Positions 2,533 to 55,629 of a stretch of 64,000 bases of DNA are shown here, piece by piece. Origin of the DNA: a virus. The stretch covers positions 1-64,000 of the IMG/VR virus record IMGVR_UViG_3300013006_001433, one strand, 5' to 3'. Numbering within the stretch: position 1 is the first letter of the stretch; each line of letters opens with the position of its first letter. Both the position numbers and the translations under genes were made by a program. The notes beneath the pieces were generated by a model, which had not been told where the DNA came from, made no database searches, and saw only the letters and a program-made list of their open reading frames with translations.

Positions 2533-3277
2533 TAAAATATTAACTGAAGATCAAGCTGAATTATACTCATTAAGAGTGCTTGATTGCAAGGATGTATTTA
2601 ATTCTTATGCAGACAATAAGTTTAGTACTTTAGGTGCAGCAAGTTACGCTAATGGTTTAGAAGAATATAATTTAATTAAAAATAAAATCAACCCAGTTAT
2701 TAAAAATAACTTTTTAGATTTGCTTAATATTGTCAAGGACTACTTAGAGTTAAGCATAAATGAACCTTGTTATTTTGATGAAAATTTAAGTTATCCAGGA
2801 TTTCATATATTTTATACAGATCATAAAGACGCTTTATTGCCATTGACCTCTTTGCATATTGATACTCCTTATGAATTACATAAAAATTATTTATTAAAAA
2901 AATATAGTGTTGTTGATTTTGATTCGCCTATTACTTTTACTTTATGTTTAAAATTGCCTAAAAGTGGTGCAGGATTATATTATTGGGATAAAGATAACTG
3001 GGACAAACAAACAGAAGAACAAAGTTACGAATTCTATTCTGATGTTTACGACAAGTATTCAACAATTTTTAAAACAAATACTCCAAGCAGAGAAGACTAT
3101 GAAAAGTTTCTGCAACCAAAAATTCTATCTTATGAAATTGGTAGTATAGTTTTATTTAAAGGAAATCTGCTTCATCAAATCGCGCCGTTTTATAATCCCA
3201 TTTATTCTGATGAATCAAGAATCACCTTGCAAGGGCATGGAATTAAATGCGATAACAAGTGGTTGCTTTATTTTTAA
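2519..3277 (+). CDS. 2OG-Fe(II) oxygenase superfamily protein
   Basis: PGFHIF, HxD (HID), distal H (LLHQIAP) and RITLQGH motifs. Confidence 0.65.
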   Translation: MLKFDKILTEDQAELYSLRVLDCKDVFNSYADNKFSTLGAASYANGLEEYNLIKNKINPVIKNNFLDLLNIVKDYLELSINEPCYFDENLSYPGFHIFYTDHKDALLPLTSLHIDTPYELHKNYLLKKYSVVDFDSPITFTLCLKLPKSGAGLYYWDKDNWDKQTEEQSYEFYSDVYDKYSTIFKTNTPSREDYEKFLQPKILSYEIGSIVLFKGNLLHQIAPFYNPIYSDESRITLQGHGIKCDNKWLLYF

Positions 3278-4266
3278 ATTTTACTTTTATCACCAGAAAA
3301 TACGACTTCAACATAATCATTAAGTGCGTGATTTAAATAAGCTTTAATAAAAGACTGCATTCCTTGTAATGTATTAAAATTATATAAACTATTATTTTGA
3401 TATACTTTATAAGTATTAATTTTCTCCAATACATCGCATTTATTAATTATAAGTTTTGTTACTCCAGAGATTTTAAGCGCATCAATTAGTTTGTTCAAAT
3501 TAAGCCAATTGACTATTCTTTTTCTTCCAGTTGTAGATCCAAATTCTTGACCTATATCAATAATCATATTCAACTCCGAATCTTCCCAAAGAGATTCTGG
3601 AAAGAGTGGGTCTACTCCACTTTTGGTATCATAAATTTTTGCTACTCCAATTATCTCTCTTATTTTTTTAGGACTAAAGCCTAAAGAACAAGCAGAGTAT
3701 GGCAGAGTCTCACTACTTGTAACATATGGATAATCTCCATAATTTAAATCCAACCAAAAGCTTTGCGCTCCTTCGCAAAGAATTTCTCCATAAAGCTCTC
3801 CATCCCAAAGATATTGTTTATCTAAATAATTTCCAGCAAGTTTCCCAGTTCGTAAAGCTTTATCTGCATAAGCTGGAGCAATTCCTTGCCCAGTAGTTCC
3901 AAGTTTAGGTTTTAAAAATTTAAGATCATACTGAATATGTTTTTCAGTAATGATATGGGCTTTAGGGCTTACTTTGATTAAAGATGTATCAAATCCCTCT
4001 TTCTTTAAGTACTCTATCTCATCAAAAAATTTATCAATATTGATAACGCAATTTGGACCAATGACGCTAAGTTTATTTTGAAAAACACCACAAGGAATGA
4101 TATGAGTTTTATACTTTTTATCATTAAGATAAACTGTGTGACCTGCATTGGGGCCACCATTCCAACGACAAACAATATCATAATTTTTAGATATTGCATT
4201 ACTTATCTTGCCTTTGCCTTCATCGCCCCAAGCTAATCCAAAGATGATGTCAACTGCTTTGATCAT
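3274..4266 (-). CDS. purA: Adenylosuccinate synthetase (short form)
   Basis: WGDEGKGK, GGPNAGHT, GTTGQGIAPAYADK, EGAQ, YPYVTSS, EFGSTTGRKR. Confidence 0.93.
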   Translation of the reverse strand: MIKAVDIIFGLAWGDEGKGKISNAISKNYDIVCRWNGGPNAGHTVYLNDKKYKTHIIPCGVFQNKLSVIGPNCVINIDKFFDEIEYLKKEGFDTSLIKVSPKAHIITEKHIQYDLKFLKPKLGTTGQGIAPAYADKALRTGKLAGNYLDKQYLWDGELYGEILCEGAQSFWLDLNYGDYPYVTSSETLPYSACSLGFSPKKIREIIGVAKIYDTKSGVDPLFPESLWEDSELNMIIDIGQEFGSTTGRKRIVNWLNLNKLIDALKISGVTKLIINKCDVLEKINTYKVYQNNSLYNFNTLQGMQSFIKAYLNHALNDYVEVVFSGDKSKI

Positions 4267-4495
4267 TTTTAGCTAATTGTTCTTGAGCTTTTTGAAGTCC
4301 ATCTAGGTAATCGGTAAGAAGTTTTTTGCAGAAATTACTGCCATCTGCTCCACAGCATTTTTTAAATTTTTTGTTATTGATTTGGCAAAAATCATTTCTC
4401 TGCATTTTGGGAGCAAGCCTTCTAACGGGTGCTCTAAAATAAGCTTGAACATATGGGGTTATACCATCTTCTTCTTTTTTAAGATCATCATTCAT
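4250..4495 (-). CDS. Small protein with a SEC-C-like metal-binding motif
   Basis: RNDFCQINNKKFKKCCG resembles RNDPCPCGSGKKYKKCCG. Confidence 0.55.
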   Translation of the reverse strand: MNDDLKKEEDGITPYVQAYFRAPVRRLAPKMQRNDFCQINNKKFKKCCGADGSNFCKKLLTDYLDGLQKAQEQLAKNDQSS

Positions 4496-5666
4496 AAATA
4501 ATTTTTCTTTTCTTTCCTTTTCTTTTTATATCCAAAGTAAGACAATGGATTCCTGCGTCCCAAAATCCTCCGTGCCTTATTTTGCATACATGACAATTAA
4601 TTCCAAACGTTTCTAGTAATTTAAAAACTTTTGGTTGTTCTGTATTATATATTATATTTGTTGGATTGACAACTAAAACATTTGATTCAAAAGCTACTTC
4701 TTGAGCGTACCCTTTCCATTCCATAAGCCAATAGTTTAACCAATCTAAAATGGACTGATCATTGTTTAAATCAAGTTTATCTTTGAATTTTTGTGTAGAT
4801 TGATAAAAAGTATAAGAATCAAAAGGTTTATATAAACCTTTAAGTTCAACGATGTATTTGTTGCGTAGACATTTTGGCACCCATTCTTTGGACGTACATA
4901 AAACCATATCATCATTAGGCATGTAAAATCCATGATCAATGTGACCCCAGCCATTCATAATTGTTTCTTCATTCCTAACGATATTCCCTGATAAATTTCT
5001 TTTCATCCATTCAAGCCCAAGCAAAGTTCCTGGCCCTAAGTTATTAGTAATAATATCTTCTCCACATTTAAAAAAATTTGCGGTATGCCATAACAAATGA
5101 TTTGAATATTTTTTATATAAATCATTCGGAGCTATATCTACGAGTTGCCAATTATCGTCAGGAGCAACTGAATTTACCAAATCAAAATATGGACTAGGCA
5201 GGTATACCTTTTCAGCTCCAGAGTTTGTAGCTAAAAAGAAATTTTTCATATTTGGAGGAGGTTGACTAATCCAATTGTAACCTTCTTCGAATAAAGATAA
5301 AAATATATCATAATATGCTAATGAATCTACATATCTATCTTGAAAAGAAGTATAGGTTTGGTATAAGGTTTTGTCATATGCAAAATATTGATCTCTTGGT
5401 ACAAGAGGAAAAGATGGGTTTCTGATTGTAAAGTCTCCACATTTTATATTTTGACTGAAATTAATAATTTTAGGTCTGTGTACTTTTACTTTAAATGTAC
5501 TTGTAATATAATTAGCTAAATTATCTAAGTCTTCTTTCGTTTCAGATAGAATTAAATTAAAAGTTTTTCTTACATCTTTCGATACTGGCCAATCAGCTGG
5601 AATTTCAATTGGACAATTTCCAACTATCACTTCTTCTAATTGATCCCAATTTGTAAAAATGCTCAT
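4488..5666 (-). CDS. Amidinotransferase (glycine/inosamine-phosphate amidinotransferase family)
   Basis: WDQLEEVIVG, PRD, GHID and C-terminal GIHCLTLD catalytic Cys motif. Confidence 0.8.
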   Translation of the reverse strand: MSIFTNWDQLEEVIVGNCPIEIPADWPVSKDVRKTFNLILSETKEDLDNLANYITSTFKVKVHRPKIINFSQNIKCGDFTIRNPSFPLVPRDQYFAYDKTLYQTYTSFQDRYVDSLAYYDIFLSLFEEGYNWISQPPPNMKNFFLATNSGAEKVYLPSPYFDLVNSVAPDDNWQLVDIAPNDLYKKYSNHLLWHTANFFKCGEDIITNNLGPGTLLGLEWMKRNLSGNIVRNEETIMNGWGHIDHGFYMPNDDMVLCTSKEWVPKCLRNKYIVELKGLYKPFDSYTFYQSTQKFKDKLDLNNDQSILDWLNYWLMEWKGYAQEVAFESNVLVVNPTNIIYNTEQPKVFKLLETFGINCHVCKIRHGGFWDAGIHCLTLDIKRKGKKRKIIYE

Positions 5667-6103
5667 TTTATTTTTAATATTTTATTTAAATAAGATTTAT
5701 CCCAAAATTCGTAGTAAGAAGTTTTAGATAAAATATCTCTAGCCTTATTCAATTCTTCTTTAGGTTGACAAAAAATCATATCATATTTATCATTATCTGT
5801 TCTAATATTATTAATATAAGTTCTTTCTGATTTACTATTGTATAGAAATATAAATTTTTTATATTTACAATTTAAATTATCGCAAATTTTTTGTAAAAAT
5901 TTAGGAGTATATTGTTTTTCTGTATCAGAAACGAATATTACTAATTCATAACCATGGGGAAAATTTATTATAATGTTATCAAGGTCTGTGCTAATTATTT
6001 TATATTTGGCTTTTTTTGCAAAAGGACAAATAGAGTGTCCACCTATGTTTTTTTGTGGCTTAGATATCTTATCAATCCAATCATTGATATTGATTTTTTG
6101 CAT
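5663..6103 (-). CDS. Hypothetical protein with CPFA motif (DUF1415-like)
   Basis: WI...ICPFAKK N-terminus. Confidence 0.45.
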   Translation of the reverse strand: MQKININDWIDKISKPQKNIGGHSICPFAKKAKYKIISTDLDNIIINFPHGYELVIFVSDTEKQYTPKFLQKICDNLNCKYKKFIFLYNSKSERTYINNIRTDNDKYDMIFCQPKEELNKARDILSKTSYYEFWDKSYLNKILKIK

Positions 6104-6313
6104 TTATAATTCTTGAGAAGGATTCCTGATATCAAAAATAGAAGCTTTAGAAGATTCGTTTTTGTCATTTTTAACAACTACATTAGTTTCATCAAAAACT
6201 TCAATTACCTCTCCATAAAAGTGGTCTAAAGTGTTATAATTTGTTATAACTGCCACTCTTTTACCAAGCATTCTCTTCAAGACATTTAGTTTTTGTGTAT
6301 TTTTTTGTTTCAT
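6104..6313 (-). CDS. Small protein, possible Sm/LSm-like fold
   Basis: LGKRVAV...FYGEV...FDETNVVV resembles the Sm1 motif; has its own promoter. Confidence 0.4.
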   Translation of the reverse strand: MKQKNTQKLNVLKRMLGKRVAVITNYNTLDHFYGEVIEVFDETNVVVKNDKNESSKASIFDIRNPSQEL

Positions 6314-6321
6314 CTTTTAGA

Positions 6322-6350
6322 ATTATATATTATATATTAGTTAATATCAA
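6322..6350 (-). promoter_or_regulatory. Sigma70-type promoter TTGATA-N17-TATAAT
   Basis: 8 nt upstream of ATG 6313. Confidence 0.6.
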
Positions 6351-7585
6351 GCTTTTTTCTTAATAAAAACTTTTTCTATTATTGATAATCCCTTGTCGCA
6401 TCCTTCTTTATCTATTGTCAAAGGCGGTAAAGCTATTAAAGAATTATTATCTCCAGAAGTGCACCACATCAATCCATTATTTATAAATTCAAAGAATAGT
6501 CTACCTACTAAATAAGTATTTGGTGTTCTGTCGACTTTATTGATTAATTCAACGGCTATCATTAATCCAATGCCCCTTACTTCTAGTGTTTCTTCTGGAT
6601 AATATTTTTTAAATAGTTTTTCTATATTCGTTCTTAAATACTCTCCCATTGTAATTGAATTTTCGCATAGCTTATCTTGTTCTATAATATCTATATTAGT
6701 TTTAGTTATACTAGTTGAGTATGGGGTCCAGGAGAAAGTAGCGGAAATATCTCCAAATTTATATTTTTTTAAATATTCTTCTTTCACAAGAACTGCTCCA
6801 ATTGCGGAATAACCAGAAGATACGCCTTTAGCAAGTATAATTGCATCTGGTTCAATTTTAAAATAATGCGAAGCAAGCATGTGCCCTATTCTTCCAAATC
6901 CAGTAATTGCTTCATCTAGGATAAGGAAAATATTTCTTTTTTTACATATTTCATAAAATTTTTTCCAATAATCTTTATGGGGTATAATAACTCCTCCGCT
7001 ACCTAAGATTGGTTCAGCTATAAATATTTTTATGTCTGGATTATTATCGAAAAATTCTTCTACTTCTTGCATGGATTCAGAATAGGAATTTGGCGGATCT
7101 AGTTTAATTGATTCATAACCTTTTCTAACGAATGGAAGTTTAAATTTTACTATTTCTCCCATTCCAAGCGTGGCTTGACTCCATCCATGATAAGATCTTT
7201 TGAATGTACCAATTTTGCCATTGGTTATATTAGAGAAAATTGATAAAGCTACTTCATTTGCATTTGCTCCACCAGTAGCTCTTAAACATTTATACTTAGA
7301 TTGTGGAAAAAAAGAAATTAACTTTTTAGCTAGTTCGTCAGCTTCTTGAGTAGGCATCCAAGGAGGGGCGTAATTTGATTTATTAATTTGCTTTATTTGA
7401 GCTTGTAGCATTTTAGGGTTCTGCCAACCAATATTGGCCACTCCATATCCTGCAGAAAAGTCAATATATTCTTTACCTTCTACGTCTATTAACGTATAAT
7501 TTTTGGCAGTTTCAAACGCTGCTGGAATTAAATAAGCAGATGCCATATTATTTTTTAATGATTTGTATAGCAATTTATTGTTCAT
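6347..7585 (-). CDS. Class III PLP-dependent aminotransferase
   Basis: DVEGKEYIDFSAG, SYHGWS, EPILGSGG, DEAITGFGRIG, AKGVSSGY (PLP Lys). Confidence 0.88.
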   Translation of the reverse strand: MNNKLLYKSLKNNMASAYLIPAAFETAKNYTLIDVEGKEYIDFSAGYGVANIGWQNPKMLQAQIKQINKSNYAPPWMPTQEADELAKKLISFFPQSKYKCLRATGGANANEVALSIFSNITNGKIGTFKRSYHGWSQATLGMGEIVKFKLPFVRKGYESIKLDPPNSYSESMQEVEEFFDNNPDIKIFIAEPILGSGGVIIPHKDYWKKFYEICKKRNIFLILDEAITGFGRIGHMLASHYFKIEPDAIILAKGVSSGYSAIGAVLVKEEYLKKYKFGDISATFSWTPYSTSITKTNIDIIEQDKLCENSITMGEYLRTNIEKLFKKYYPEETLEVRGIGLMIAVELINKVDRTPNTYLVGRLFFEFINNGLMWCTSGDNNSLIALPPLTIDKEGCDKGLSIIEKVFIKKKA

Positions 7586-7589
7586 TTGA

Positions 7590-8336
7590 TTAGCACTTTA
7601 TACTTTCGTAAATTTCGAGTTGATCTTTAAGCATTTTTTCTAACAAATCTCTTTTATAATAATTACCTCGATATGATGTTATTTGCTCCTCATTAAATGG
7701 CTTTATATAACAATCAAGTAATTCACTTAATGATTTACATGTTTTTTTAATTTCTGAAAATTTACCAATATAATTGAAGTCTTTAATGTTTTCATATCCA
7801 TAAAATAATTCTTTTATTGGTTGATATTTAATTCCATTGTAATAAAAATATATTGGAATATCATTTAATATCATATCTATATATTCTTCTAATGAATGAT
7901 ATTGATTAGCTTTAAAAACCATACTTATTCTTTCATCTAAAGATAATTTATTTATTGCGTCTAGAGATAATTTATTTGCTTCATCTAAAAATTTTTTATT
8001 TGTTGCAAAATTCCAATAAGCGAAAAGTTCGTATATTTGATCTACTGGATGATTTATTATCGTAAAATGAAGATCTTCTTGTTTTTTGTTTAAATTAGAG
8101 GTAGAAAAAACTCCATAAAGTATGCCTTCGAATCTTTCGTGTTTTAATGTGGCTGGTATCATTTTAAGTATATCATTCGAGTCTCTATAATCGTTTTCAT
8201 TACATAATAGATAAGGATAATGAAACTCTTTGATTTGTTTGTTTTCTATATCTGGATCATATAAGTCTATTCCATCTAATATAGAATCAAGTATTTTTGG
8301 ATACAATCTTCCTGCCATTGCTTGATATATTATCAT
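7590..8336 (-). CDS. Hypothetical, weakly sulfotransferase-like
   Basis: FTIINHPVDQIYELF resembles FTxxRxPxxRxxS but lacks the Arg and Ser; FNYIGKF. Confidence 0.35.
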   Translation of the reverse strand: MIIYQAMAGRLYPKILDSILDGIDLYDPDIENKQIKEFHYPYLLCNENDYRDSNDILKMIPATLKHERFEGILYGVFSTSNLNKKQEDLHFTIINHPVDQIYELFAYWNFATNKKFLDEANKLSLDAINKLSLDERISMVFKANQYHSLEEYIDMILNDIPIYFYYNGIKYQPIKELFYGYENIKDFNYIGKFSEIKKTCKSLSELLDCYIKPFNEEQITSYRGNYYKRDLLEKMLKDQLEIYESIKC

Positions 8337-8344
8337 ATGGAATA

Positions 8345-9103
8345 TTATTCTTTATCATCAAACCTTGCGACATAAGATATCATTCTAAAATGGGCTTTTC
8401 TTAAAGATTCTATTTTAGAGGTTTGATGATCCCGTTGGTGAAGGATTAATTTGTTTTCTAGTAATATTGCTCCAGAGGTTGGTATTAGTTCGTTTTGGCT
8501 TTTAAAAATTAATATATCTCCAACTTTTAAATCAGCAATAGATTGAGGATGAATTTTTTTAAAATTATTTTTTTGTAACCAGTCTTTTCTATATTCCCAT
8601 GTCCAAGATAGATTTTCGTCTGGTTTTTTTGATCTTTCTGGCTCTGGATCTGTTATGAAGATTTTTAATTCTTGAACAAGATGTCTTTCTAGAGTTGCCC
8701 AACAATCGTTTACCCCATTTTGGTAATTTAAATTAATGTATTTTTTATAATGAGAATATTTAATTGGATCAAAAAAATAAAATTTATTTTCTATAACATT
8801 ATAAAGAACATAAGGAATTTCAGTTTTTAAACTGGTATCTATATCTTCACTAGAAAAACCTCCTCCTTTTACATGAGAATGAAAGCACGCTAAAATGTCT
8901 CCTTTTTGTTCACATATTTTTTGATCCATCGGATTTATTAGAAATTTATTCCTTTTATCTAATGATATATTTTCACATTCTCGAATAAATATTTCTTTTT
9001 TAAAGATAGAAATATAAATTAATCCACAAAGTTCTTCCTTGGTGTTACTTAAGGAATACTCTTTGATTTTTTTTAATATATTTTTATTTAAAAGATTATG
9101 CAT
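8345..9103 (-). CDS. Tail assembly protein K-like (JAB/MPN plus NlpC/P60), paralog 2
   Basis: EELCG, ENIS, FHSHxxxxxxSxxD JAB motif; GVNDCW; NlpC His replaced by Ser (PTSGAILL). Confidence 0.75.
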   Translation of the reverse strand: MHNLLNKNILKKIKEYSLSNTKEELCGLIYISIFKKEIFIRECENISLDKRNKFLINPMDQKICEQKGDILACFHSHVKGGGFSSEDIDTSLKTEIPYVLYNVIENKFYFFDPIKYSHYKKYINLNYQNGVNDCWATLERHLVQELKIFITDPEPERSKKPDENLSWTWEYRKDWLQKNNFKKIHPQSIADLKVGDILIFKSQNELIPTSGAILLENKLILHQRDHQTSKIESLRKAHFRMISYVARFDDKE

Positions 9104-9857
9104 ACTTTTTATGTCTTAAAATATATGATATATATCTTGAGTGTCCTTTTCTAAAAGATTCTAAAGTAGAAATAAAATTATATCTTTGATGTAGAATTAA
9201 GTCGTTCTCTAGTAATAAAGCCCCATGAGTTGGTATATTTTCTTCAAAACCAGTAAAAACTATTATATCGTAAATTTTTAAGTCTTTAATAGTTTTTGGA
9301 TTTAAAACTTCAAATCCAACTCGATGATATTCACTTTCATATTTTTCAAGTGACCAAGCGTGTTCGTTAACAGTTTTAAGATCGTTATATGATAAGCCTA
9401 TCCTTTTTGGACTATTTTTTAAGCTTATATCTAAATCTAGTTCATTTTTATAAAAATCTACTATTAACGTTTCGCAATCTGTGACCCCTAATTCATAAGG
9501 TCTATTTATATATTTCTTGTAACATTCTTTTTCTTTTGGATCAAAAATATAAAATTTATCACTTTTAATATTATAAAGATAGTAAACAAGATTATGCTTA
9601 AAACTATTTACAATATCATGAAAAGAAAAAGATAAATTTTTAATATGGGAATGGAAACATCCTATTATATCTCCATATTGTTTTGCATATAGATAACATA
9701 ATGGATCTATAGCAAATGACTCCATTTTGCTTAAAGAGATATTTTTACTTTTTAAAAAGATTTTATTATTTTCTACCTGTACGACAAGACCGCAAGCTTC
9801 TTCTTTTTTATATTTTAATGCATGTTCCTTGGCTTGTATTAAAAAGTCATTTTCCAT
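9096..9857 (-). CDS. Tail assembly protein K-like (JAB/MPN plus NlpC/P60), paralog 1
   Basis: EEACGLVV, FHSHxxxxxFSxHD; RPYELGVTDC...PTHGALLL...ILH; start refined to MENDF, overlapping the upstream stop. Confidence 0.8.
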   Translation of the reverse strand: MENDFLIQAKEHALKYKKEEACGLVVQVENNKIFLKSKNISLSKMESFAIDPLCYLYAKQYGDIIGCFHSHIKNLSFSFHDIVNSFKHNLVYYLYNIKSDKFYIFDPKEKECYKKYINRPYELGVTDCETLIVDFYKNELDLDISLKNSPKRIGLSYNDLKTVNEHAWSLEKYESEYHRVGFEVLNPKTIKDLKIYDIIVFTGFEENIPTHGALLLENDLILHQRYNFISTLESFRKGHSRYISYILRHKKYA

Positions 9858-10956
9858 GAGCAAAACCTTCATACATGCTGTTGGGGCTATTTCTCACTGC
9901 TTGTATTGTGTCATTCCATAGTCCACCTCGCATATCTTGTAGATTTCTGAATCCTAAATAACTCATAGCACTTCTTAAGCCATTAGTAAAATCATAAACT
10001 ATGTCCTCTATAGTTTTATTTTCTACAATAGGAATAAGAGTATTATCTCCTTCAACAAAAAGATTTTTCTTTGTCCCATCGTGAAGGTCATAATCTTCGA
10101 CAACGTCTTGACTTGCCATTCCTCTATACTTAGCGAATCTTTTTCCATCTATTTCAATAATATTTTCATCATCAACTACATCAGCTAATCCAGCAAAAAT
10201 TCTTCCACAAATAACTGCGTCGCATCCACTAGCAATAGCTTTAACTAAATCCTTTGGATAACGAATACCGCCATCAGCAAGTATACTTGGTCTATGTTCT
10301 GGATTGGGTTTGTCTTGTTTGAATAGATCAACTTGCGACAACTCCCAATTCCTTACGGCTTTCCAAGCGTAATAATTTCCAGTTAAACTCGGACATCCAA
10401 TTCCAGTTTTTACTTGAGTTAAACACATCGAACCTGGTCCAATCAAGTGTCTAAACCCATCTGCTTTTAAATTCGCTAATCTATAAACACTTTCTTTAGT
10501 TAAAGTATTACCGACAATGACATCTTGAGAAAATCCAGAAGTTTTATACCATCTAAGAAAATCTTCAACATTCTTGGCCAAACCATTAGCAGTATCCAAA
10601 AAGTAAATATTTGTAAATGCGCTAGTAGCTCTAATTCTTTCTTCTGCGTCTTTTAAACCAATGGCTGTAACACAAAAATTACTTTCATCTTTAATAATTT
10701 TAGCTTTTACTCTTTGGTCGTCAATGGACATAAATCTATGTAATACTCCTGCTGCGCCAAGTTTATTAATTTTAATACAAGATTTAACTGAAGATACAGT
10801 ATCCATTGGGGAAAGAATAATTGGAATTTTAATATTACAATTCCTTGATATCTTAGTAGTTGTATCTACCTCTTTCCTAGAGGTTATATCTGAAAAATTT
10901 GGGAGTAATGAAATATCATCGTAACTTAAGGCTTCTTTGAATTCTTGTTTTTGCAT
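9847..10956 (-). CDS. guaB: IMP dehydrogenase / GMP reductase family enzyme lacking CBS domains
   Basis: ALSYDDISLLP, SPMDTV, GVLHRF, IGPGSMCLT, ADGGIR, YRGMAS, GLRSAMSY. Confidence 0.8.
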   Translation of the reverse strand: MQKQEFKEALSYDDISLLPNFSDITSRKEVDTTTKISRNCNIKIPIILSPMDTVSSVKSCIKINKLGAAGVLHRFMSIDDQRVKAKIIKDESNFCVTAIGLKDAEERIRATSAFTNIYFLDTANGLAKNVEDFLRWYKTSGFSQDVIVGNTLTKESVYRLANLKADGFRHLIGPGSMCLTQVKTGIGCPSLTGNYYAWKAVRNWELSQVDLFKQDKPNPEHRPSILADGGIRYPKDLVKAIASGCDAVICGRIFAGLADVVDDENIIEIDGKRFAKYRGMASQDVVEDYDLHDGTKKNLFVEGDNTLIPIVENKTIEDIVYDFTNGLRSAMSYLGFRNLQDMRGGLWNDTIQAVRNSPNSMYEGFAHGK

Positions 10957-10968
10957 ATATTTTAACTT

Positions 10969-10997
10969 ATTGTAATCTAAAATTACAAATAAGTCAA
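10969..10997 (-). promoter_or_regulatory. Sigma70-type promoter TTGACT-N17-TACAAT
   Basis: 12 nt upstream of the guaB ATG. Confidence 0.6.
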
Positions 10998-12800: not shown

Positions 12801-13385
12801 ATGATTATAGGTATAACTGGTGTCGCCAGATGTGGAAAAGATACATTTTACTCTATACTTAAAAAATACTTAGAGGAAAGGCAACTAAAATCTCAAAGAT
12901 TAGCCTTTGCTGATGATCTTAAAGAAGAGCTTAATGGATTTACTAAAGAAAAATTTAAAATAGATTTATTTAAATGCGATGGTGTGGATAAAGAATTAGT
13001 ACGACCTTTAATGGTGGCTTACGGAAAATGCAGAAGAAGTCAAACAGAAGGTAAGTACTGGACATCTAAATTGGACCCTAAAGTAGAAAAATTATTAAGA
13101 GAACAAATTGTTCCAATTATTACTGACGTAAGATACATTGAGTATAAAGATGACGAATACTCATGGTTAAAATCTCATAATGGCATATTAATCCATTTGT
13201 CTAGAAAATTAGATGATGGAAGTTTTGTGCCACCAGCAAACATTGAAGAAAAAGCGAATGATAATAAATTGAAAGCTGTAGCTGATTTTTCTATATGTTG
13301 GGAAACTTGTCAAGATACAAATTTCTTGTATGAACTTATGCAGAAAAACTTAAGGAATATATATGACAGACTTAGACCTAATTAA
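12801..13385 (+). CDS. Deoxynucleoside monophosphate kinase
   Basis: IIGITGVARCGKDT P-loop, LAFADDLK, ITDVRY; start refined from the promoter. Confidence 0.8.
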   Translation: MIIGITGVARCGKDTFYSILKKYLEERQLKSQRLAFADDLKEELNGFTKEKFKIDLFKCDGVDKELVRPLMVAYGKCRRSQTEGKYWTSKLDPKVEKLLREQIVPIITDVRYIEYKDDEYSWLKSHNGILIHLSRKLDDGSFVPPANIEEKANDNKLKAVADFSICWETCQDTNFLYELMQKNLRNIYDRLRPN

Positions 13386-13947
13386 AAATATAAAAAATAA
13401 CCAAGATAATGAATCTCTTAAATGCCTAATACATAGACATAGTGGAATTTTTTGTGAGATTATAAAAAGATATCAATCTTTTATAGCTCAAAAAGGCCAT
13501 GACCCAAAAGATCTTTATGAAGATAAAGATGTTATCGTATATCAATCTGCTCTTTCTTTTAATGAAGATAAGAATGTGAAATTCTCTACTTGGTTAGGGA
13601 ATCAAGCCAGATATCATTGTTTGAATTTTTTAAATAAAAATGCCAAATTCTTACCTACAGATAATGAATATCTTCAAAATATGATAGAGAATTCTCAAGA
13701 TCAAAAAGAAGACATGCAAAAAGAAAATTGCGATTATTTTCTTAATATTCTAAAATCCTTAAAAGATAAAAGAGTATATAAAATATTTAAAATGCGTTTC
13801 TACTCTCCAAAAAAGAAAAATCGTTCTTGGAATGCTATTGGTAAAAAATTAAATATAAGTACCCAAACTGTTATTAATATATATAACAAGCACATTCATT
13901 TCTTAAAAGTCAAATCATTTAAAAATAATTTTAATGATCAGATATAA
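13363..13947 (+). CDS. Phage-encoded sigma70-family sigma factor
   Basis: Region 2-like SALSFNEDKNVKFSTWL; region 4 HTH SWNAIGKKLNISTQTV. Confidence 0.75.
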   Translation: MTDLDLIKNIKNNQDNESLKCLIHRHSGIFCEIIKRYQSFIAQKGHDPKDLYEDKDVIVYQSALSFNEDKNVKFSTWLGNQARYHCLNFLNKNAKFLPTDNEYLQNMIENSQDQKEDMQKENCDYFLNILKSLKDKRVYKIFKMRFYSPKKKNRSWNAIGKKLNISTQTVINIYNKHIHFLKVKSFKNNFNDQI

Positions 13948-13951
13948 TTTC

Positions 13952-13980
13952 TTGACTTTTTATTATAATAGCAATATAAT
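13952..13980 (+). promoter_or_regulatory. Sigma70-type promoter TTGACT-N17-TATAAT
   Basis: 8 nt upstream of ATG 13989. Confidence 0.75.
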
Positions 13981-20284: not shown

Positions 20285-20313
20285 TTGACATTTTTATAAT
20301 AATAGCTTACCAT
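20285..20313 (+). promoter_or_regulatory. Sigma70-type promoter TTGACA-N17-TACCAT heading the glycan cluster
   Basis: 5 nt upstream of ATG 20319. Confidence 0.65.
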
Positions 20314-30807: not shown

Positions 30808-31860
30808 ATGAAGAAAATTATTATAACTGGTGTTAGTGGTCAAGACGGTTCTTATATGGCGGAACATTGTTTAGCTTTGGGGCATAAAGTCTACGGGATA
30901 GTAAGAAGGTCATCTAATCCAAATTATAGTAATTTAATTAATGTAATTAATAATGCTAATTTTAAATTTGTTTATGCAGATTTATCTGATTTTTCATCCA
31001 TTGAAAATGCAATAAGAGAAATAGAACCAGATTATTTTATTAATTTTGCCGCTCAATCTTATGTAGGCGCAAGCTGGGTAATGCCAGAGCAAACATTTGA
31101 TATTACTGCCATGGGTGTTTTAAGATGTCTAGAAGCTATTAGAAAAAATTCTACAAAATGTAAATTCTATAGTGCTGGATCTAGCGAAGAAATGGGAAAT
31201 GTTGAATACAGCCCACAGGATCTTAAGCATCCATTGAAACCAAGATCTCCATATGGAGCAGCAAAAGCAGCTGCTAGACATATAACTAAAGTTTATAGAG
31301 AGTCTTATAATTTATATGCAATTCACTGTATTTTATATAATCATGAAAGCGAAAGACGAGGAGAAGAATTTGTAACTAGAAAAATAACAAAAGGCGTAGC
31401 AAGAATTAATTATGCCTTAAAAAATAAACTACCATTCGAACCAATTGAATTAGGAAATTTAGATTCAAAAAGAGATTGGAGCCATGCTAAAGATTTTGTT
31501 GAAGGAATATGGGAAATGCTTAATCAAGAATCTCCAAAGGAATATATTCTTTCTTCAAATGAAACTCATAGTATCAGAGAATTTGTAGAAAAATCATTTA
31601 AAAATATTGGTATTGATGGACATTGGATTTATATAAATGATGGCAGACCAGAAGACGAAGGATATTATCTAAAAGATAATAATGGCAATCATGTACTATT
31701 GGTTAAAGTTAATCCCAAATTTTATAGGCCAGCAGAAGTCGATCTATTATTAGGAGACTCTTCTTTAGCTAGACAAGAGCTAAATTGGGAGCCTAAAATT
31801 TCATTTGACAATCTAGTAAAAAGAATGGTAGAATGGGACGTTGAAAATTACAAACCATAA
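30808..31860 (+). CDS. gmd: GDP-mannose 4,6-dehydratase
   Basis: ITGVSGQDGSY, AAQSYV, PRSPYGAAK, NHESERRGEEFVTRKI, GNLDSKRDW, RPAEVDLLLGD. Confidence 0.93.
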   Translation: MKKIIITGVSGQDGSYMAEHCLALGHKVYGIVRRSSNPNYSNLINVINNANFKFVYADLSDFSSIENAIREIEPDYFINFAAQSYVGASWVMPEQTFDITAMGVLRCLEAIRKNSTKCKFYSAGSSEEMGNVEYSPQDLKHPLKPRSPYGAAKAAARHITKVYRESYNLYAIHCILYNHESERRGEEFVTRKITKGVARINYALKNKLPFEPIELGNLDSKRDWSHAKDFVEGIWEMLNQESPKEYILSSNETHSIREFVEKSFKNIGIDGHWIYINDGRPEDEGYYLKDNNGNHVLLVKVNPKFYRPAEVDLLLGDSSLARQELNWEPKISFDNLVKRMVEWDVENYKP

Positions 31861-34004: not shown

Positions 34005-34033
34005 TTGACTTTTAATTTTTAATATAGTATCAT
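34005..34033 (+). promoter_or_regulatory. Sigma70-type promoter TTGACT-N17-TATCAT
   Basis: 5-8 nt upstream of the dnaB start. Confidence 0.65.
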
Positions 34034-38022: not shown

Positions 38023-38051
38023 TTGACACTAGAATATATATTAATTATAAT
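38023..38051 (+). promoter_or_regulatory. Sigma70-type promoter TTGACA-N17-TATAAT (perfect consensus)
   Basis: 6 nt upstream of ATG 38058. Confidence 0.8.
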
Positions 38052-40191: not shown

Positions 40192-42742
40192 AGATTTTAA
40201 TAGTTTATTTGATCAAGTGGATCTACCTCTTTATGGAGTAAGACTTCCAGAATTTAAAATAGATAATGAATATAAGCATGACTTAGAAGTAAGTGAAGAT
40301 GTATCAAATTATGAATTCCTGAGAGCATTAGCTTTAAAAGGATTTAAAAAATTAAATCTTAAGAAAGATTCTGATTTATATAAAAAATATATTGAAAGAG
40401 CAAAGTACGAATTAGAAACTCTTAAAGAATTAGAGTTTATTGATTATATTATTTTGGTTTGGAGTGTTATTGATTATTGCAATAAGAACAACATTCCAGT
40501 TGGATTAGGTAGAGGTTCAGCAGCTGGTTCTCTTATACTATATCTAATTGGAGTTACTCAAATTGATCCAGTTAAATATGATCTTTATTTTGAAAGATTT
40601 ATATCTAAGATTAGAGCCAAAAAGCAAGTTGTTGATGGAGTGACCTATTTAGATGGTAGTTTAATGTGTGACGTAGATTTGGATATTTGTTATTATAATA
40701 GGCATAAAGTTCTACAATACCTAGAAGAACAATTCAAAGGTAAGACTAGTAAAATTTTGACATTAAATACATTAAGTGGAAAACTCTTAATTAAGGAGTG
40801 CGGAAAAATCGTTGGAGAAAAATCAGAACAAGAGATGACAGAAGTATCATCCATGATTCCAAAGATTTTCGGACAAGTTAAAGATATTACAACAGCTTTT
40901 GACGAAGTTCCTAAATTTAAAGAATGGTGCGAATCTAATAAAGATATTTATGCCGTTGCTCTTAAACTAAGAAACTTAATCAAAAATAAGGGCGTTCATC
41001 CATCTGGAGTTTTGTTATCTTATAATGATTTAGAAAAATCTTGTCCAACTGAATTATCTGGAGACAAAGAAGCGGTATCAAGTTTTGATATGAGTTGGGT
41101 TTCATTATTTAATATTAAACTTGATATTCTAGGCTTAAGAAGCGTTTCTGTAGTAGATGATGTTTGTAAAAGTATTGGTAAAAAAATAACCGATATTGAC
41201 TTGAATGATGAGTCTATTTATAGAAATCTACAAGACCTAAGAAATCCTCATGGCCTATTTCAAATTGAAGCAGAAACTAATTTTAAAGTTTGTCAAAAAG
41301 TTAAGCCTAAGAACCTAGAAGAATTAAGTGGAGTTTTAGCTTTAGCTAGACCTGGAGCTTTGCAATTTGCTGATAAATATGCTGCTCATACTAATTTTCA
41401 ACAATCTGAAAGCATCCATCCATTCTTCGATGACATATTAAAAGATACTGGTGGAGTAGCTTTGTATCAAGAGCAATTAATGAAGATGGCTCATAAAATT
41501 GGCTTCACCTTAGATGAAGCAGAAATTTTAAGAAGAATTGTAGGTAAAAAGAAAACCGAAGAAATTAAAGCTTGGAAAAAGAAGATCGAAGATAAGATTA
41601 AAGAAAATAAACTTCCAAAAGAAGTAGGGGAAATCTTATGGAAAATCTTGGAGGATTCAGCAAACTATTCATTTAATAAATCACATTCAATCGCTTATGC
41701 AGCTTTAGCCGCGATTACTATTTATTTAAAGTTCAACTATCCTCAACAATTCTTTTTATCTCTACTAAAGATGACTAGAAATGAACCAGATCCAATTGGT
41801 GAAATATCTAAAATTCAAAAAGAAATGGGTCACTTCGATATTAAATTATTAAAACCTCATATCATTAAATCTCAGATGGATTTTTCAATAGAAGGTTCTG
41901 ATATTAGATTTGGATTATTATCAATTAAAGGTATTTCAGATAAGTCAATTGAGAAGTTAAATGGATTTAGAAACAAGTACTCTAATAAGTTTGAAATTTT
42001 TCAAGCAGCAGAAGAAGCAGATCTTAACATCGGAGTATTATGTTCGTTGATTCAAGCTGGAGCTTTAACTGGATTTAAACAATCTAGAAGTAAAATAGTA
42101 TTAGAAGCTCAACTTTGGAATATATTAACATCAAAAGAAAAGAAATATGCAATTTCATTTGCCGAACAATTTGATTATGATCTTATTAGAATCATTAAAC
42201 ATTTAAATACATTTACTGATGAAAAGAATAAAGTTATAATTAAGAGCTCTAGATTAGATACAATTAAAACTAAATACGAACCCTACCTTAAAATATACAA
42301 TCAAAATAGCAAGAGCGAAAGTTTTGCTAATTGGTATTATGAAAAAAGACTTTTGGGCTATACTTACGAAAGAACATTAAAAGATATCTTTAACGAAAAG
42401 AGAGAAGATTTATTATTTATTGATGAAATTATGGATTTGCCAGTAAATCAAAAAGTAGCATTAGTTGGAGAAGTTACTGATGTACATTCTGGTATATCAA
42501 AGAACGAGAAGAAAACCAAATATCTAAGACTTAAAGTTTCAGATGAATCTGGCGATATTACTGTATTATTATTTAATGATAAGATAGAAAATTGCAAAAC
42601 TTTGAATGGAAATAAGAATCCAGAGGAAAAGAATATTGTAATAGTCAAAGGTATTAAAAAAGAAGACTGTGTATTTGCTGACTTAGTAGCTGTTCAAGAT
42701 CATCAAATATATATGAAATTAAGCGAAATTAAAAAGATTTGA
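40181..42742 (+). CDS. dnaE: DNA polymerase III alpha catalytic core (lacks PHP)
   Basis: GLGRGSAAGSL, FERF, DVDLD, HPSGV, KLDILGL, YQEQLM, YSFNKSH, C-terminal OB fold. Confidence 0.92.
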   Translation: MTNKDFNSLFDQVDLPLYGVRLPEFKIDNEYKHDLEVSEDVSNYEFLRALALKGFKKLNLKKDSDLYKKYIERAKYELETLKELEFIDYIILVWSVIDYCNKNNIPVGLGRGSAAGSLILYLIGVTQIDPVKYDLYFERFISKIRAKKQVVDGVTYLDGSLMCDVDLDICYYNRHKVLQYLEEQFKGKTSKILTLNTLSGKLLIKECGKIVGEKSEQEMTEVSSMIPKIFGQVKDITTAFDEVPKFKEWCESNKDIYAVALKLRNLIKNKGVHPSGVLLSYNDLEKSCPTELSGDKEAVSSFDMSWVSLFNIKLDILGLRSVSVVDDVCKSIGKKITDIDLNDESIYRNLQDLRNPHGLFQIEAETNFKVCQKVKPKNLEELSGVLALARPGALQFADKYAAHTNFQQSESIHPFFDDILKDTGGVALYQEQLMKMAHKIGFTLDEAEILRRIVGKKKTEEIKAWKKKIEDKIKENKLPKEVGEILWKILEDSANYSFNKSHSIAYAALAAITIYLKFNYPQQFFLSLLKMTRNEPDPIGEISKIQKEMGHFDIKLLKPHIIKSQMDFSIEGSDIRFGLLSIKGISDKSIEKLNGFRNKYSNKFEIFQAAEEADLNIGVLCSLIQAGALTGFKQSRSKIVLEAQLWNILTSKEKKYAISFAEQFDYDLIRIIKHLNTFTDEKNKVIIKSSRLDTIKTKYEPYLKIYNQNSKSESFANWYYEKRLLGYTYERTLKDIFNEKREDLLFIDEIMDLPVNQKVALVGEVTDVHSGISKNEKKTKYLRLKVSDESGDITVLLFNDKIENCKTLNGNKNPEEKNIVIVKGIKKEDCVFADLVAVQDHQIYMKLSEIKKI

Positions 42743-42767
42743 CATTTTATTAAACATAATATATCAT
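42739..42767 (+). promoter_or_regulatory. Sigma70-type promoter TTGACA-N17-TATCAT
   Basis: 6 nt upstream of ATG 42774. Confidence 0.7.
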
Positions 42768-45255: not shown

Positions 45256-46410
45256 ATGCATACTTTAGAATCATTTGCAACATCTTGTGGAGTTAAAATC
45301 AATAGACCATATATTTATGAAAAATATTATCCATTAAATTTTGATAAATACATTATATTAGATACAAACGATAACAAAGCCCCAGCTAAAAATTACGATT
45401 ACTGGCAAGAAGTAGTTAATCTTATTCTTCCAGAATTAAATAAAGCTAATATTAAAATACTACAAACTTGTGCACAAAATGATCTAAAATTACTAAATGC
45501 TTATACAGTTATTGGCGAGACATATAATCAAAAAGCATATTTAATTAAAAATGCTCAATTATACGCAGGTTCTAATAACTTTGGTATTCAACTAGCCTCT
45601 TATTTAAATAAGAAAACTGTAGCATTATATGGTAATATCTATGCTGCTCAAAATAAGCCTTATTGGAGTAAAGATCAGGACATTGTTCTTATTGAAGGAT
45701 TTGAAAAAGGTAAGCCATCTTACGCTGCTCAAGAACAACCCAAATTAATTAACGAAATTAAACCAGATAAAATTGCAGAAGCTATTCTCAATAAATTAGA
45801 TATCAAGCCTAATGTAAAATATAAATTTACAAACATTGGATTAAATTTTAATACTAAAACTATAGAGATGTTGCCAACAATGATAGTTAACACTCAGGCA
45901 TTTAATGTTCCTCATATTATAGTTAGAATGGATTTACATTTTAGTGAAATTGTATTGGAAACAGAATTAGCGCAAAATAAATGTATTATCGTAACAGAAA
46001 AAAGTATATCAGAAGAGATAATCAAAAAGTATAGAGCAAACATTGTTCAAATCATCTATAAAATAGACAAAGACAATAATCCAAACTTTATTAAATTATT
46101 AAAAAGTTTGAATATCCAATATGGGCTAATGTCCGATTTAGAGCAAGAAGAGATTGATAAAATTAAAATAAATTATATGGATTTAGGTTTAATTATAAAA
46201 GCTCAAACCAAGACTAAAAAAGATTTTAATGTTAAAGGTAAATACTATAAAAGTAATCATTTCATATTAAGTGATAATAAGTTATACATGAGCGAAGCTG
46301 CTGTGGAAAAAGATTTACCTATTAAAGATTTCAATGAAAATGTGCAAGAGATAATTGATACAGATACATTTTGGAAATATGCACAAAATTATGCTTTTTT
46401 AGTTGACTAG
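45256..46410 (+). CDS. GT9-like glycosyltransferase
   Basis: KNYDYWQEVV, AYLIKNA, KTVALYG, INEIKPDKI. Confidence 0.55.
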   Translation: MHTLESFATSCGVKINRPYIYEKYYPLNFDKYIILDTNDNKAPAKNYDYWQEVVNLILPELNKANIKILQTCAQNDLKLLNAYTVIGETYNQKAYLIKNAQLYAGSNNFGIQLASYLNKKTVALYGNIYAAQNKPYWSKDQDIVLIEGFEKGKPSYAAQEQPKLINEIKPDKIAEAILNKLDIKPNVKYKFTNIGLNFNTKTIEMLPTMIVNTQAFNVPHIIVRMDLHFSEIVLETELAQNKCIIVTEKSISEEIIKKYRANIVQIIYKIDKDNNPNFIKLLKSLNIQYGLMSDLEQEEIDKIKINYMDLGLIIKAQTKTKKDFNVKGKYYKSNHFILSDNKLYMSEAAVEKDLPIKDFNENVQEIIDTDTFWKYAQNYAFLVD

Positions 46411-46431
46411 TTTATATAAATAGACTATCAT
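46403..46431 (+). promoter_or_regulatory. Sigma70-type promoter TTGACT-N17-TATCAT
   Basis: 7 nt upstream of ATG 46439. Confidence 0.7.
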
Positions 46432-47249: not shown

Positions 47250-48107
47250 TTATAATCCAGAAAGTGCAGATATCAGAGTATTCACTCTAGCTTTCAACAA
47301 AGTCATATCCAAGTATTCTCCTATAGAATAAAAAGCTATTCTTGCTGGTACACATTCGCTAAGGCTATTATTTAGATTGGCCCGACCAAAAACTAAATAA
47401 TTTGTTGTTGCATCTGGAGTTACACTTGCTACACTAGAAAATGTATAGCTTGATGATGCTGGAGAAGTAGTAAGTGGATAATACAGAGTATGTTGAGAAG
47501 TGCTATTTTTTGTAACACCATAGATACCTGCTACATGAGAAGAAGTTCCATAAGGAGTGAAAATTTGGCTTTGAGTGGTTCTAGCGCCCGCACCCATTCC
47601 CAATGCTCCAGAAGTAGCTTTAAAGAAAGCAATATGGGAAAGAGAAGTTGTTGGTGATCTTGCCCCAATAAGATAATAATAAGTAGCATTTAGCGGAATA
47701 GTATTACTATGATGATATACTGATAAATGAAAATTATTTTGAGGATCTGCATTATGGGCTCTATTACTATTTAAATACTTAGTAGTACCATCACTTAAAA
47801 GACCAGTGCTTCTACTATAATCAGAAGATGTAAAAAAAAAGCTAGTTGGGGCAGTTCCTTTTAAGGGTACAAGAGCGCCATTTAAAGTTCTTGCGCCAGC
47901 AAGTATACAACAACTTTTTATAGCATCCCATATTCCATCGCTTTTGCATCCATCTATAAAATTATTAATAGCTGTTTTTACTGAAGACTCTAATGATTGA
48001 CCATCAGCAGCCTCAACAGCAGCAATATATGTTGATGCTTCTGTTACAACAGAAATAGAATCTGAACGGCTTATAATTCCAAAAGAAACTGATGGTAATA
48101 TTATCAT
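47250..48107 (-). CDS. Tail-associated hypothetical protein
   Basis: Overlaps the gpJ stop; YIAAVEAADGQSLE...GARTLNGALVPL. Confidence 0.55.
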   Translation of the reverse strand: MIILPSVSFGIISRSDSISVVTEASTYIAAVEAADGQSLESSVKTAINNFIDGCKSDGIWDAIKSCCILAGARTLNGALVPLKGTAPTSFFFTSSDYSRSTGLLSDGTTKYLNSNRAHNADPQNNFHLSVYHHSNTIPLNATYYYLIGARSPTTSLSHIAFFKATSGALGMGAGARTTQSQIFTPYGTSSHVAGIYGVTKNSTSQHTLYYPLTTSPASSSYTFSSVASVTPDATTNYLVFGRANLNNSLSECVPARIAFYSIGEYLDMTLLKARVNTLISALSGL

Positions 48108-53188: not shown

Positions 53189-53881
53189 TTATGTTGTACG
53201 TTGATCTGAAGATGATGGAACATAATTATTATTATAAGAGGCAGATATAGTTTTTGATCCAATTAATAATCTTCCGTATCCTATTGGAATTGGTCCACCC
53301 TCTCCAGCTGTATTAGATGGTCCATCAAAAAGATAAGATTTTCCACCACCACCTTTTGGGCTGGCTACGTCTGGTGCAGAAAATTCTGGAGCAAGATAAG
53401 GAGGCGGAGAAGATAATAAAGAAGCAAATCCTGCTGCTGCAAGACCAATACCTCCTATAATTAAACCTATTCCCAGAGGAGCAGCGGCACCAGTAGCAAT
53501 TAAAACGACTCCTACAACTATCAGAGCAATACCAAATATTGCTCCGAAAAGACCTCCACCACCTCCAGCGCCTTCAATTATGGGTATTATATCTATGCTT
53601 TTTAATTCATCATCTTCAAATTTAGTCATTAAATTTGAATTAAAGACCCTATCAAAATCGTCTCTAATTTCTTCTTCATTCTTAAAACATTTAAAATCTC
53701 TTTTATTAACTAGAACTCTATATTTTATATTTTCTTTATCTAATTCTTTTAAATTTTTATAAAAAATTTGAGTATTTGCTTCAATAGCTCTTATTGCTTC
53801 TGAAACACTATTAACACTAAGTGACCAATTATTTTTTTTAATTTTTTCTCCAATTATACCATGTAGTTGTATGTTTACCAT
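53189..53881 (-). CDS. Tail assembly protein I (ubiquitin-like N-domain)
   Basis: IQLHG...SVSEAIRAI...IDIIPIIEGAGG, TM-like Gly-rich segment, SYLFDGPSNT..EGGPIPIGYGRLLIGS. Confidence 0.88.
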   Translation of the reverse strand: MVNIQLHGIIGEKIKKNNWSLSVNSVSEAIRAIEANTQIFYKNLKELDKENIKYRVLVNKRDFKCFKNEEEIRDDFDRVFNSNLMTKFEDDELKSIDIIPIIEGAGGGGGLFGAIFGIALIVVGVVLIATGAAAPLGIGLIIGGIGLAAAGFASLLSSPPPYLAPEFSAPDVASPKGGGGKSYLFDGPSNTAGEGGPIPIGYGRLLIGSKTISASYNNNYVPSSSDQRTT

Positions 53882-53898
53882 ATAATATATTCCATTTA

Positions 53899-55606: not shown

Positions 55607-55629
55607 ATTACACTTATTAATAGTGTAAT
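55607..55629. promoter_or_regulatory. Back-to-back GTGTAA late-type promoters (near palindrome)
   Basis: ATTACAC-TTATTAATA-GTGTAAT between divergent tail genes. Confidence 0.65.

Follow-up and report, generated by a model that had tools for sequence, protein, structure and literature searches.

How does a phage with a lambda-type tail tip manage when the gene for gpK is missing from its usual place between L and I? Few gene orders of siphophages are as well conserved as M-L-K-I-J. The window considered here, that is, the whole 64,000-nucleotide stretch of DNA that was analysed, comprises bases 1–64,000 of the 78,158-base IMG/VR record IMGVR_UViG_3300013006_001433 (labelled G000) and departs from that order, with no K in its tail block and two tandem gpK paralogues, designated K1 and K2, elsewhere. 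The record has a GC content of ~29% and a CheckV completeness of 51%, and its source group consists of uncultured, AT-rich lake phages with an estimated genome size of 150–160 kb.

In phage lambda the tail genes run M-L-K-I-J and gpI carries a ubiquitin-like (Ubl) domain (Iyer et al. 2006, PMC1779556). The same authors predicted that the JAB domain of tail assembly protein K (TAPK) releases the Ubl of TAPI (gpI), and noted variant architectures, including TAPK versions with an NlpC/P60 domain alone (PMC1779556). The gpK protein is needed for assembly yet absent from virions (PMC10721106, PMC12617516), and a 2025 conference summary describes work from the Davidson group in which cleavage of the gpI Ubl by lambda gpK serves as a checkpoint of assembly (PMC12908700). 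The Bil defence system conjugates a Ubl to the central tail fibre, and Hör et al. speculate that the deubiquitinase (DUB) domains of tail assembly proteins may counter it (bioRxiv 10.1101/2023.09.04.556158). The background cited in an earlier note on this DNA (lambda gene order, the gpI Ubl and the action of Bil on the tail fibre) agrees with these sources (PMC1779556, bioRxiv 10.1101/2023.09.04.556158). A literature search found no paper on a displaced or duplicated K.

The tail-tip genes of the window lie on the minus strand. They encode a gpM-type minor (distal) tail protein (55016–55585; Pfam Phage_min_tail, E = 4e-19; phrog_14), a gpL-type tail-tip hub protein (53899–55014; Pfam Phage_tail_L, E = 1e-33; phrog_18, E = 4e-43), a gpI-type tail assembly protein with a Ubl-type N-terminal domain and a hydrophobic C-terminal part (53189–53881; phrog_32, E = 9e-35), and a gpJ-type central tail fibre (48104–53185; Pfam Phage-tail_3, PT-HINT and FNIII-A_GpJ). 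By the coordinates of the open reading frames (ORFs), the K slot on this strand is empty, being reduced to a 17-bp gap between L and I (53882–53898). The order M-L-I-J recurs in all 30 related tail loci (L identity 53–99%), in which L and I abut or overlap. The hub protein of the window has 371 amino acids (aa) against ~232 aa in lambda, with ~90 additional N-terminal residues and the C-terminal cysteine motifs kept; in relatives it reaches 457–774 aa.

The two K genes lie on the same strand behind a guaB-like gene. K1 occupies 9096–9872 (258-aa ORF), with its probable start at the ATG at 9857 (MENDF...), a start shared by most orthologues, and K2 occupies 8345–9103 (252-aa ORF). The two frames overlap by 8 nt, and K1 overlaps the 3′ end of the guaB-like gene. 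Both proteins match phrog_30, the gpK family, over their full length (K1, E = 6e-35; K2, E = 2e-22); Pfam gives weak Prok-JAB matches in both and a weak NLPC_P60 match in K2. A tblastn search of phage records with K1 aligned it to lambda-type K in 1534 records at ~25% identity over 89–100% of its length, and the matched proteins are annotated as tail assembly protein K, gpK homologue or C40 peptidase. K1 and K2 are 41% identical to each other. Members of the gpK family are typically located between L and I, whereas K1 and K2 lie ~44 kb from L.

No third K was found in the whole 78-kb record, nor in ~110 kb of the ~150–160-kb genome type as assembled from joined contigs on the assumption of collinearity, a coverage that includes G006, which runs ~25 kb past the end of the record. 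The picture drawn by the earlier note, a tail order of M-L-I-J without K, a distance of ~44 kb and two tandem gpK paralogues behind guaB, is thus borne out by the Pfam and PHROG assignments, by the alignment with lambda-type K and by the coordinates.

Among related K loci (13 in total, five from IMG/VR and eight additional metagenome loci; the metagenome scan yielded 12, of which four were the same contigs as viral loci), the order guaB-K1-K2 holds in 13 of 13, with guaB directly upstream wherever the locus reaches that far. K2 and K1 overlap by 4–14 nt across these loci, and K1 overlaps the end of guaB. Because guaB-K1-K2 is found in all 13 K loci and M-L-I-J in all 30 tail loci, the displaced, duplicated K is a clade character and not a single-contig accident. 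The known gpK family is here displaced, duplicated and half-disabled.

We consider it probable that K1 and K2 together are this phage's gpK, provided in trans, with K1 as the full enzyme and K2 as a JAB-only specialist whose NlpC/P60 domain is probably non-catalytic. In the ancestor of the clade, the K function would have left the slot between L and I for a variable cargo slot between the guaB-like and purA-like genes. There the tandem pair would be translationally coupled and co-transcribed with guaB, and its products would act on the tail-tip complex encoded ~44 kb away. K1 would most likely do the job of lambda gpK, its JAB domain cutting the gpI Ubl behind its conserved glycines (...IIEGAGG) when gpI has taken its place in the tip complex. 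In K2, the JAB centre is kept and the NlpC/P60 domain would be a conserved, folded element, probably without catalysis since only the Cys of the Cys-His pair remains. The analysis establishes homology, domain architecture, catalytic residues, fold, synteny throughout the clade, purifying selection and a complementary occurrence among genomes, and from these we infer that gpI is cleaved, that the paralogues work in trans and that they share out the work.

Fold, catalytic centres and selection

AlphaFold2 models of the two proteins, built with 108–115 homologues, have a mean predicted local distance difference test (pLDDT) score of 93.8 for K1 and 96.5 for K2. Foldseek recognizes two domains in each, a JAMM deubiquitinase fold at the N-terminus and an NlpC/P60 fold at the C-terminus, which is the architecture of gpK (JAB/MPN+ followed by NlpC/P60, ~200–270 aa). 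The best match of the N-terminal domain is Pyrococcus PfJAMM1 with its bound Ubl SAMP2, followed by AMSH, BRCC36, CSN5, Rpn11 and Cap3, while the C-terminal domain matches Spr/MepS, Acd24020 and SagA. A sequence search of the PDB with the family profile retrieved no solved relative.

JAMM/MPN+ isopeptidases cleave after a C-terminal Gly-Gly-type tail. K1 and K2 share the N-terminal fold and the metal-binding motif with these enzymes (PfJAMM1–SAMP2, Rpn11–Rpn8, AMSH, CBASS Cap3 and the Bil DUB), but the likeness is at fold level (14–20% identity), and K1 and K2 are fused to NlpC/P60. The resemblance to Cap3 and other isopeptidases nevertheless speaks for a different role, in which one or both paralogues, most plausibly K2, would strip a Bil-type Ubl from the central tail fibre, besides or instead of serving assembly. 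The target of Bil is the gpJ-type central tail fibre, and Hör et al. themselves propose a counter-measure based on DUB domains. The Cap3 match, however, is found at rank 20 (E = 1.4e-3) and at fold level only, and no PADLOC defence-system model matched K1 or K2 at E ≤ 0.1. We regard such a counter-defence role as unlikely, if still a serious alternative.

Alignment with lambda K and a Pseudomonas-phage K places the JAB centre of K1 at E25, H74-S75-H76, S83 and D86 (K1 numbering, used throughout), and K2 keeps the same residues. The JAMM motif (Glu, H-x-H, Ser-x-x-Asp) is present in all 24 orthologous sequences compared, 12 of K1 and 12 of K2. The NlpC/P60 triad of the gpK family (C133, H216 and H228) is complete in K1, and all catalytic residues of K1 are kept in 12 of 12 orthologues. 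In K2 the triad is incomplete: the equivalents of C133 and H228 are kept, and Ser stands in place of H216 (PTSGA against PTHGA in K1). All 12 K2 orthologues retain the JAMM motif and the NlpC Cys, with the His replaced by Ser, Tyr or Phe.

Among the best family matches, this loss is peculiar to the K2 lineage. A profile search of 1.84 billion representative proteins yielded 2577 family members, and when the best 149 of these were aligned with K1 and K2, the NlpC His was present in 144 of the 151 rows. Among those best 149, apart from two truncated proteins, it is absent only in K2-lineage proteins, two of which also lack the third residue of the triad.

Each domain of K1 and K2 is under purifying selection. 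The ratio of nonsynonymous to synonymous substitution rates (dN/dS, or ω) across both genes and both domains is 0.05–0.7, usually 0.1–0.25, against 0.04–0.09 for guaB. The NlpC half of K2 is not decaying, because its pairwise identity (51%) is similar to that of K1 (54%) and its dN/dS is low (0.05–0.38). The faster evolution of K1 and K2 relative to their metabolic neighbours (ω 0.1–0.5 against 0.04–0.09 for guaB) would fit a counter-defence role.

The comparison with lambda gpK (phrog_30; C40 family peptidase NP_040598) brings these features together. The same are the succession of JAB and NlpC/P60, the JAMM residues, the Cys-His-His triad in K1 and the co-occurrence with gpL, gpM, gpJ and a gpI with a Ubl and glycine tail. 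Different are the location in a metabolic operon ~44 kb from the tail genes, the presence of two paralogues, the missing NlpC His of K2, a sequence identity of ~25%, and a spacing from HSH to Ser that is one residue shorter in K1 and K2. Evolution can part the two peptidase activities of gpK-type proteins or dispense with them, as is likewise indicated by the NlpC/P60 pseudo-enzymes and split TAPK variants of Iyer et al. 2006; K2, however, loses the opposite half (the NlpC His) while JAB is kept and the whole domain stays under purifying selection.

In the earlier note, both paralogues were said to keep the E/HSH/S/D motif of JAB, and the second to carry Ser in place of the NlpC His; the alignment confirms both. 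Its proposal that the paralogues have specialized stands as far as functional divergence goes, given the loss of the His in 12 of 12 K2 sequences with the JAB centre, Cys and fold kept, while the two directions that it proposed for this specialization, two substrates or anti-defence, we consider unlikely.

K1, with both centres, and K2, with JAB, a retained Cys and a His-less NlpC, form a natural separation-of-function pair. The reported activity of gpK is JAB cleavage of the gpI Ubl, and comparison of the two proteins could reveal the role of the NlpC/P60 half. They are also concrete candidates for asking whether the deubiquitinase-like enzymes of tail assembly also counter Bil-type defence. 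A more specific version of this idea, which we hold to be quite improbable, is that K2 is a JAB isopeptidase with a binding-only NlpC domain that counters Bil-type conjugation of Ubl to gpJ, while K1 keeps the assembly function. If true, an assembly gpK and an anti-defence gpK would here be found naturally separated for the first time.

Candidate substrates in gpI and gpJ

The Ubl-type N-terminal domain of gpI in the window ends in ...DIIPIIEGAGGGGG, and the tail motif DI[IV]P..EG.GG is conserved across the 30 tail loci of the clade. As is characteristic of the gpK family, K1 and K2 co-occur with a gpI that carries a Ubl and a conserved glycine, and relatives without gpI are also without K.

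A second glycine site is found at the start of gpJ. Residues 1–164 (52694–53185) comprise a 16-aa leader ending in ...ELIKGAG, a Hint domain (residues 17–146; CFVAGT...FVHN, with Lys at +1), a stretch of 13 prolines and then HTPVEA, the conserved beginning of J. Across the clade, the leader reads ...KK[IF]YPK[IV][IL][RK]GAGGG (53137–53185 in the window; L026–L055), which resembles a ubiquitin tail and echoes the tail of gpI. It is conserved with and without Hint; at this glycine site some relatives lack a Hint domain and others have one of two types.

These two sites suggest a refinement of the assembly reading, in which the paralogues would be divided between the gpI site (IIEGAGG) and the gpJ site (K[IV][IL][RK]GAGGG), or would act as a K1–K2 heterodimer. 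Both motifs are conserved in the 30 tail loci, and the overlapping reading frames suggest coupled, equimolar synthesis. Rpn11–Rpn8-type MPN enzymes are among the fold matches, and many MPN proteins heterodimerize. However, K1 and K2 both keep a full JAMM centre and have their degenerate site in NlpC, unlike the active/inactive MPN pairs of which Rpn11/Rpn8 is an example, and their alleles assort independently. In several members of the clade, moreover, Hint lies exactly at the GAG site and may itself release the leader. We therefore regard a two-substrate split or a heterodimer as unlikely.

A more distant relative, G039 (IMGVR_UViG_3300044527_000635; locus L191, G039:C1 3251–4749; GC 33%), carries two K genes within its tail block in the order M-L-Ka-Kb-I-J, and has a gpJ leader of ...YIKGFGGGGGG together with a gpI tail of ...IIKGAGGGG, which would suit two enzymes with two sites. 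In contrast, an unrelated single-K phage (L007) has the gpJ leader ...TIHGAGGGGGG, so that one K may serve both sites, while G011, a single-K relative of the window, has a different gpJ N-terminus. The leader is thus compatible with the two-substrate idea, but the association is not diagnostic. Because a similar leader occurs both in the single-K L007 and in the independent two-K G039, the GAG motif does not explain the duplication.

Distribution among relatives and origin of the pair

Three contigs hold both loci, namely the record of the window itself (G000), G001 (86.9 kb; guaB 86% identical to that of the window) and G007 (57.3 kb; guaB 88%). Each combines a K-less M-L-I-J block with K1-K2 behind guaB ~44 kb away, and these are their only two K genes. 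Large mosaic relatives, reached by walking outward from the contig ends, differ in this respect. In G011 (133.6 kb; guaB 96%) the canonical order M-L-K-I-J stands beside the same divergent x350 neighbour, the only K lies in the tail block, and guaB is followed directly by the next backbone gene, an order that was read directly. G017, G018 and G022 (guaB 95%) possess L with one K beside it and none elsewhere in the contig. The complete, 172-kb G036 (with a 31% guaB match) and G034 (with no guaB match) also have L and one K beside it. Finally, G010 (171.9 kb, 100% complete), G012 and G013 have guaB at 74–83% identity and no L, no I and no K; in G010 and G012, a small ORF, a w4250 homologue and the purA-like gene come after guaB.

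K1-K2 are thus found exactly where a lambda-type tail tip occurs without its own K, in a pattern that involves small numbers and in which the three positive contigs represent one evolutionary event. This distribution is the strongest argument on function and favours a role in tail assembly, because a replacement predicts such a complementary pattern whereas an added anti-defence or metabolic gene would not. In particular, that relatives with a canonical K lack K1-K2, and that relatives without a lambda-type tail lack any K, fits the replacement of an assembly protein better than counter-defence. The arrangement suggests that K is able to act from a distant, differently organized operon. It would also constrain mosaicism, since the two loci appear to be functionally tied across 44 kb: a K-less tail module would work only in genomes that carry the guaB-linked K cassette. 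Free recombination is seen among backbone genes, guaB of G011 being 96% identical to that of the window and the tail proteins of G011 only 34–37%.

Duplication of K is not confined to this clade. The Ka and Kb genes of G039 are, like K1 and K2, tandem, overlapping gpK paralogues accompanied by a lambda-type tail tip and glycine-tail motifs in gpJ and gpI; they differ in that both copies occupy the canonical slot between L and I and keep all catalytic residues. In the tree they lie outside the K1+K2 clade and are not each other's sisters, which indicates an independent origin of this duplication. With both copies of G039 inside its tail block, duplication of K has thus arisen more than once and is tied to the tail. 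It is rare among cultured phages, in which only ~7 of 1534 records have two K places (1541 places in all).

Phylogenetic trees unite K1 and K2, with a few unplaced metagenomic proteins, in one strongly supported clade within the gpK family, of which K2 forms a derived subclade; the duplication therefore predates the sampled diversity. The K of G011 was considered as the sister of K1+K2, a position that would have proved that the phage's own K had been translocated, and was rejected because its long branch falls among the general representatives of gpK. L056 was likewise rejected as an outgroup for the tail block, being a provirus with only 32% L identity and a generic example of the canonical order. 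Outside the K1/K2 orthologues the closest relative that bears the His is P0022, and a scan of viral contigs with it gave no match.

Between G000 and G001, K1 is 62% and K2 49% identical, which is near the values of the tail-tip proteins (52–59%) and well below those of RNR (97%) and guaB (86%). Recombination has also reached into the pair. In L014, K1 is 74% identical to that of L015 and K2 is 90% identical to that of L011, and between K1 of L014 (846–1625) and of L015 (3343–4113) the JAB half has a dN of 0.29 and the NlpC half one of 0.06, a difference suggestive of a recombination breakpoint where the domains meet. Such shuffling of alleles, and even of domains, is expected of genes in conflict and would suit a counter-defence role.

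Several points weigh against the assembly reading that we prefer. The phage is uncultured, and the role of K1 and K2 is read from sequence, predicted structure and distribution. With the record at 51% completeness, ~40–50 kb of the genome type lies outside the search, and a third K may be located there. The NlpC Cys is invariant in K2, which would be unaccounted for if the domain were simply dead. As the trees do not have the canonical K of G011 for the nearest outgroup of K1+K2, a K that the phage itself translocated is indistinguishable from a foreign replacement. The tail-like divergence rate of the pair is weak evidence, because the 248-aa product of the gene behind K2 (31%) and the aminotransferase (55%) diverge as much as K1 and K2. 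Lastly, the alleles of K1 and K2 recombine independently (pairwise-identity r = 0.42), which does not fit a tightly co-adapted pair.

The guaB operon and its surroundings

The operon that contains K1-K2 runs on the minus strand and begins with the guaB-like gene (9847–10956), a member of the IMPDH/GMP-reductase family (Pfam IMPDH, E = 8e-62) to which the NCBIfam IMPDH and GMP-reductase models match, all under their cut-offs. Behind K2 follow a tightly packed gene for a 248-aa protein (x248; 7590–8336), which had no Pfam or PHROG match, and, next in the packed run, a class III aminotransferase gene (6347–7585; Pfam Aminotran_3, E = 4e-72). Together with a dCMP deaminase gene and the purA-like gene, these form the metabolic operon around the pair.

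This conserved position inside a metabolic operon raises the alternative that the pair has left the tail and acts in a purine or aminotransferase pathway, for example on a small carrier protein or an amide. In some bacterial pathways, JAB proteins process sulfur-carrier Ubls (PMC1779556). However, comparison of the window with L008–L023 and L186–L189 indicates that the stretch 4488–8336 is a slot for variable cargo, with the guaB-like gene on one side and the w4250/purA-like genes on the other; its contents (K1-K2, the 248-aa ORF, the aminotransferase and the genes at 4488–6313) are present, absent or elsewhere depending on the relative. The 248-aa ORF, for instance, stands behind K2 in L008, L009, L011 and L014 and is absent there in L010, L012, L015, L017 and L020. 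Relatives with the same metabolic genes and a canonical or absent tail K carry no K1-K2, no Ubl carrier or E1 gene lies nearby, and apart from gpI no Ubl partner was seen in the genome. Co-option to metabolism is accordingly very improbable.

A scan identified a sigma-70-type promoter-like element, TTGACT-17-TACAAT, at 10969–10997 (minus strand), which ends 12 nt before the start codon of the guaB-like gene. In 7 of 10 related loci both hexamers recur at this place around a diverged spacer, and the element is absent in L008, L009 and L012 because guaB directly follows another gene there. Conservation of the hexamers at one position despite diverged spacers supports a real host-type promoter. 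In this AT-rich stretch, however, promoter-like matches overall are at chance level (69 found against 63.4 expected). The earlier note's description of a sigma-70-driven operon is accordingly confirmed only in part.

A promoter of its own, conserved and separate from the tail block, would be in keeping with a counter-defence role for the pair. The same type, however, precedes many other operons, and the M operon also has a −35/−10-like pair. We rejected the sigma-70-type promoter as a mark of early timing for this reason; with a common promoter type and matches at chance level, no temporal class can be assigned to the K operon, and nothing marks it as early. The tail tip and K1-K2 would thus at least be regulated through different sequences, because the M operon has its own upstream region and a palindrome conserved in the clade. 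This perfect palindrome, TTACAC-N9-GTGTAA (55608–55628), is located in the 52 bp that separate M from a divergent plus-strand gene (55638–56690), occurs once in the window (against 0.03 by chance) and is conserved in ~17 related loci. It may be an operator or a hairpin in the 5′ untranslated region of the tail-tip operon.

The purA-like gene (3274–4266, minus strand) encodes a short, 330-aa adenylosuccinate-synthetase-like protein whose PHROG family is named PurZ-type. An identity as PurZ, which would imply a Z-genome, was rejected, as the NCBIfam PurZ model reaches 101 bits where its cut-off is 300 and is outscored by PurA models; a Z-genome thus finds no support. Strong elements of the form TTGAC[AT]-17/18-TAnnnT are found at 13952–13980, 20285–20313, 31805–31834, 34005–34033, 38023–38051, 42739–42767 and 46403–46431. 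They end only 6–9 nt ahead of start codons, and many operons would on this reading yield leaderless or nearly leaderless mRNAs. A 194-aa protein encoded at 13363–13947 (plus strand) matches Sigma70_r2 weakly (E = 2e-5, slightly above the gathering cut-off of Pfam) and may be a phage-encoded sigma factor.

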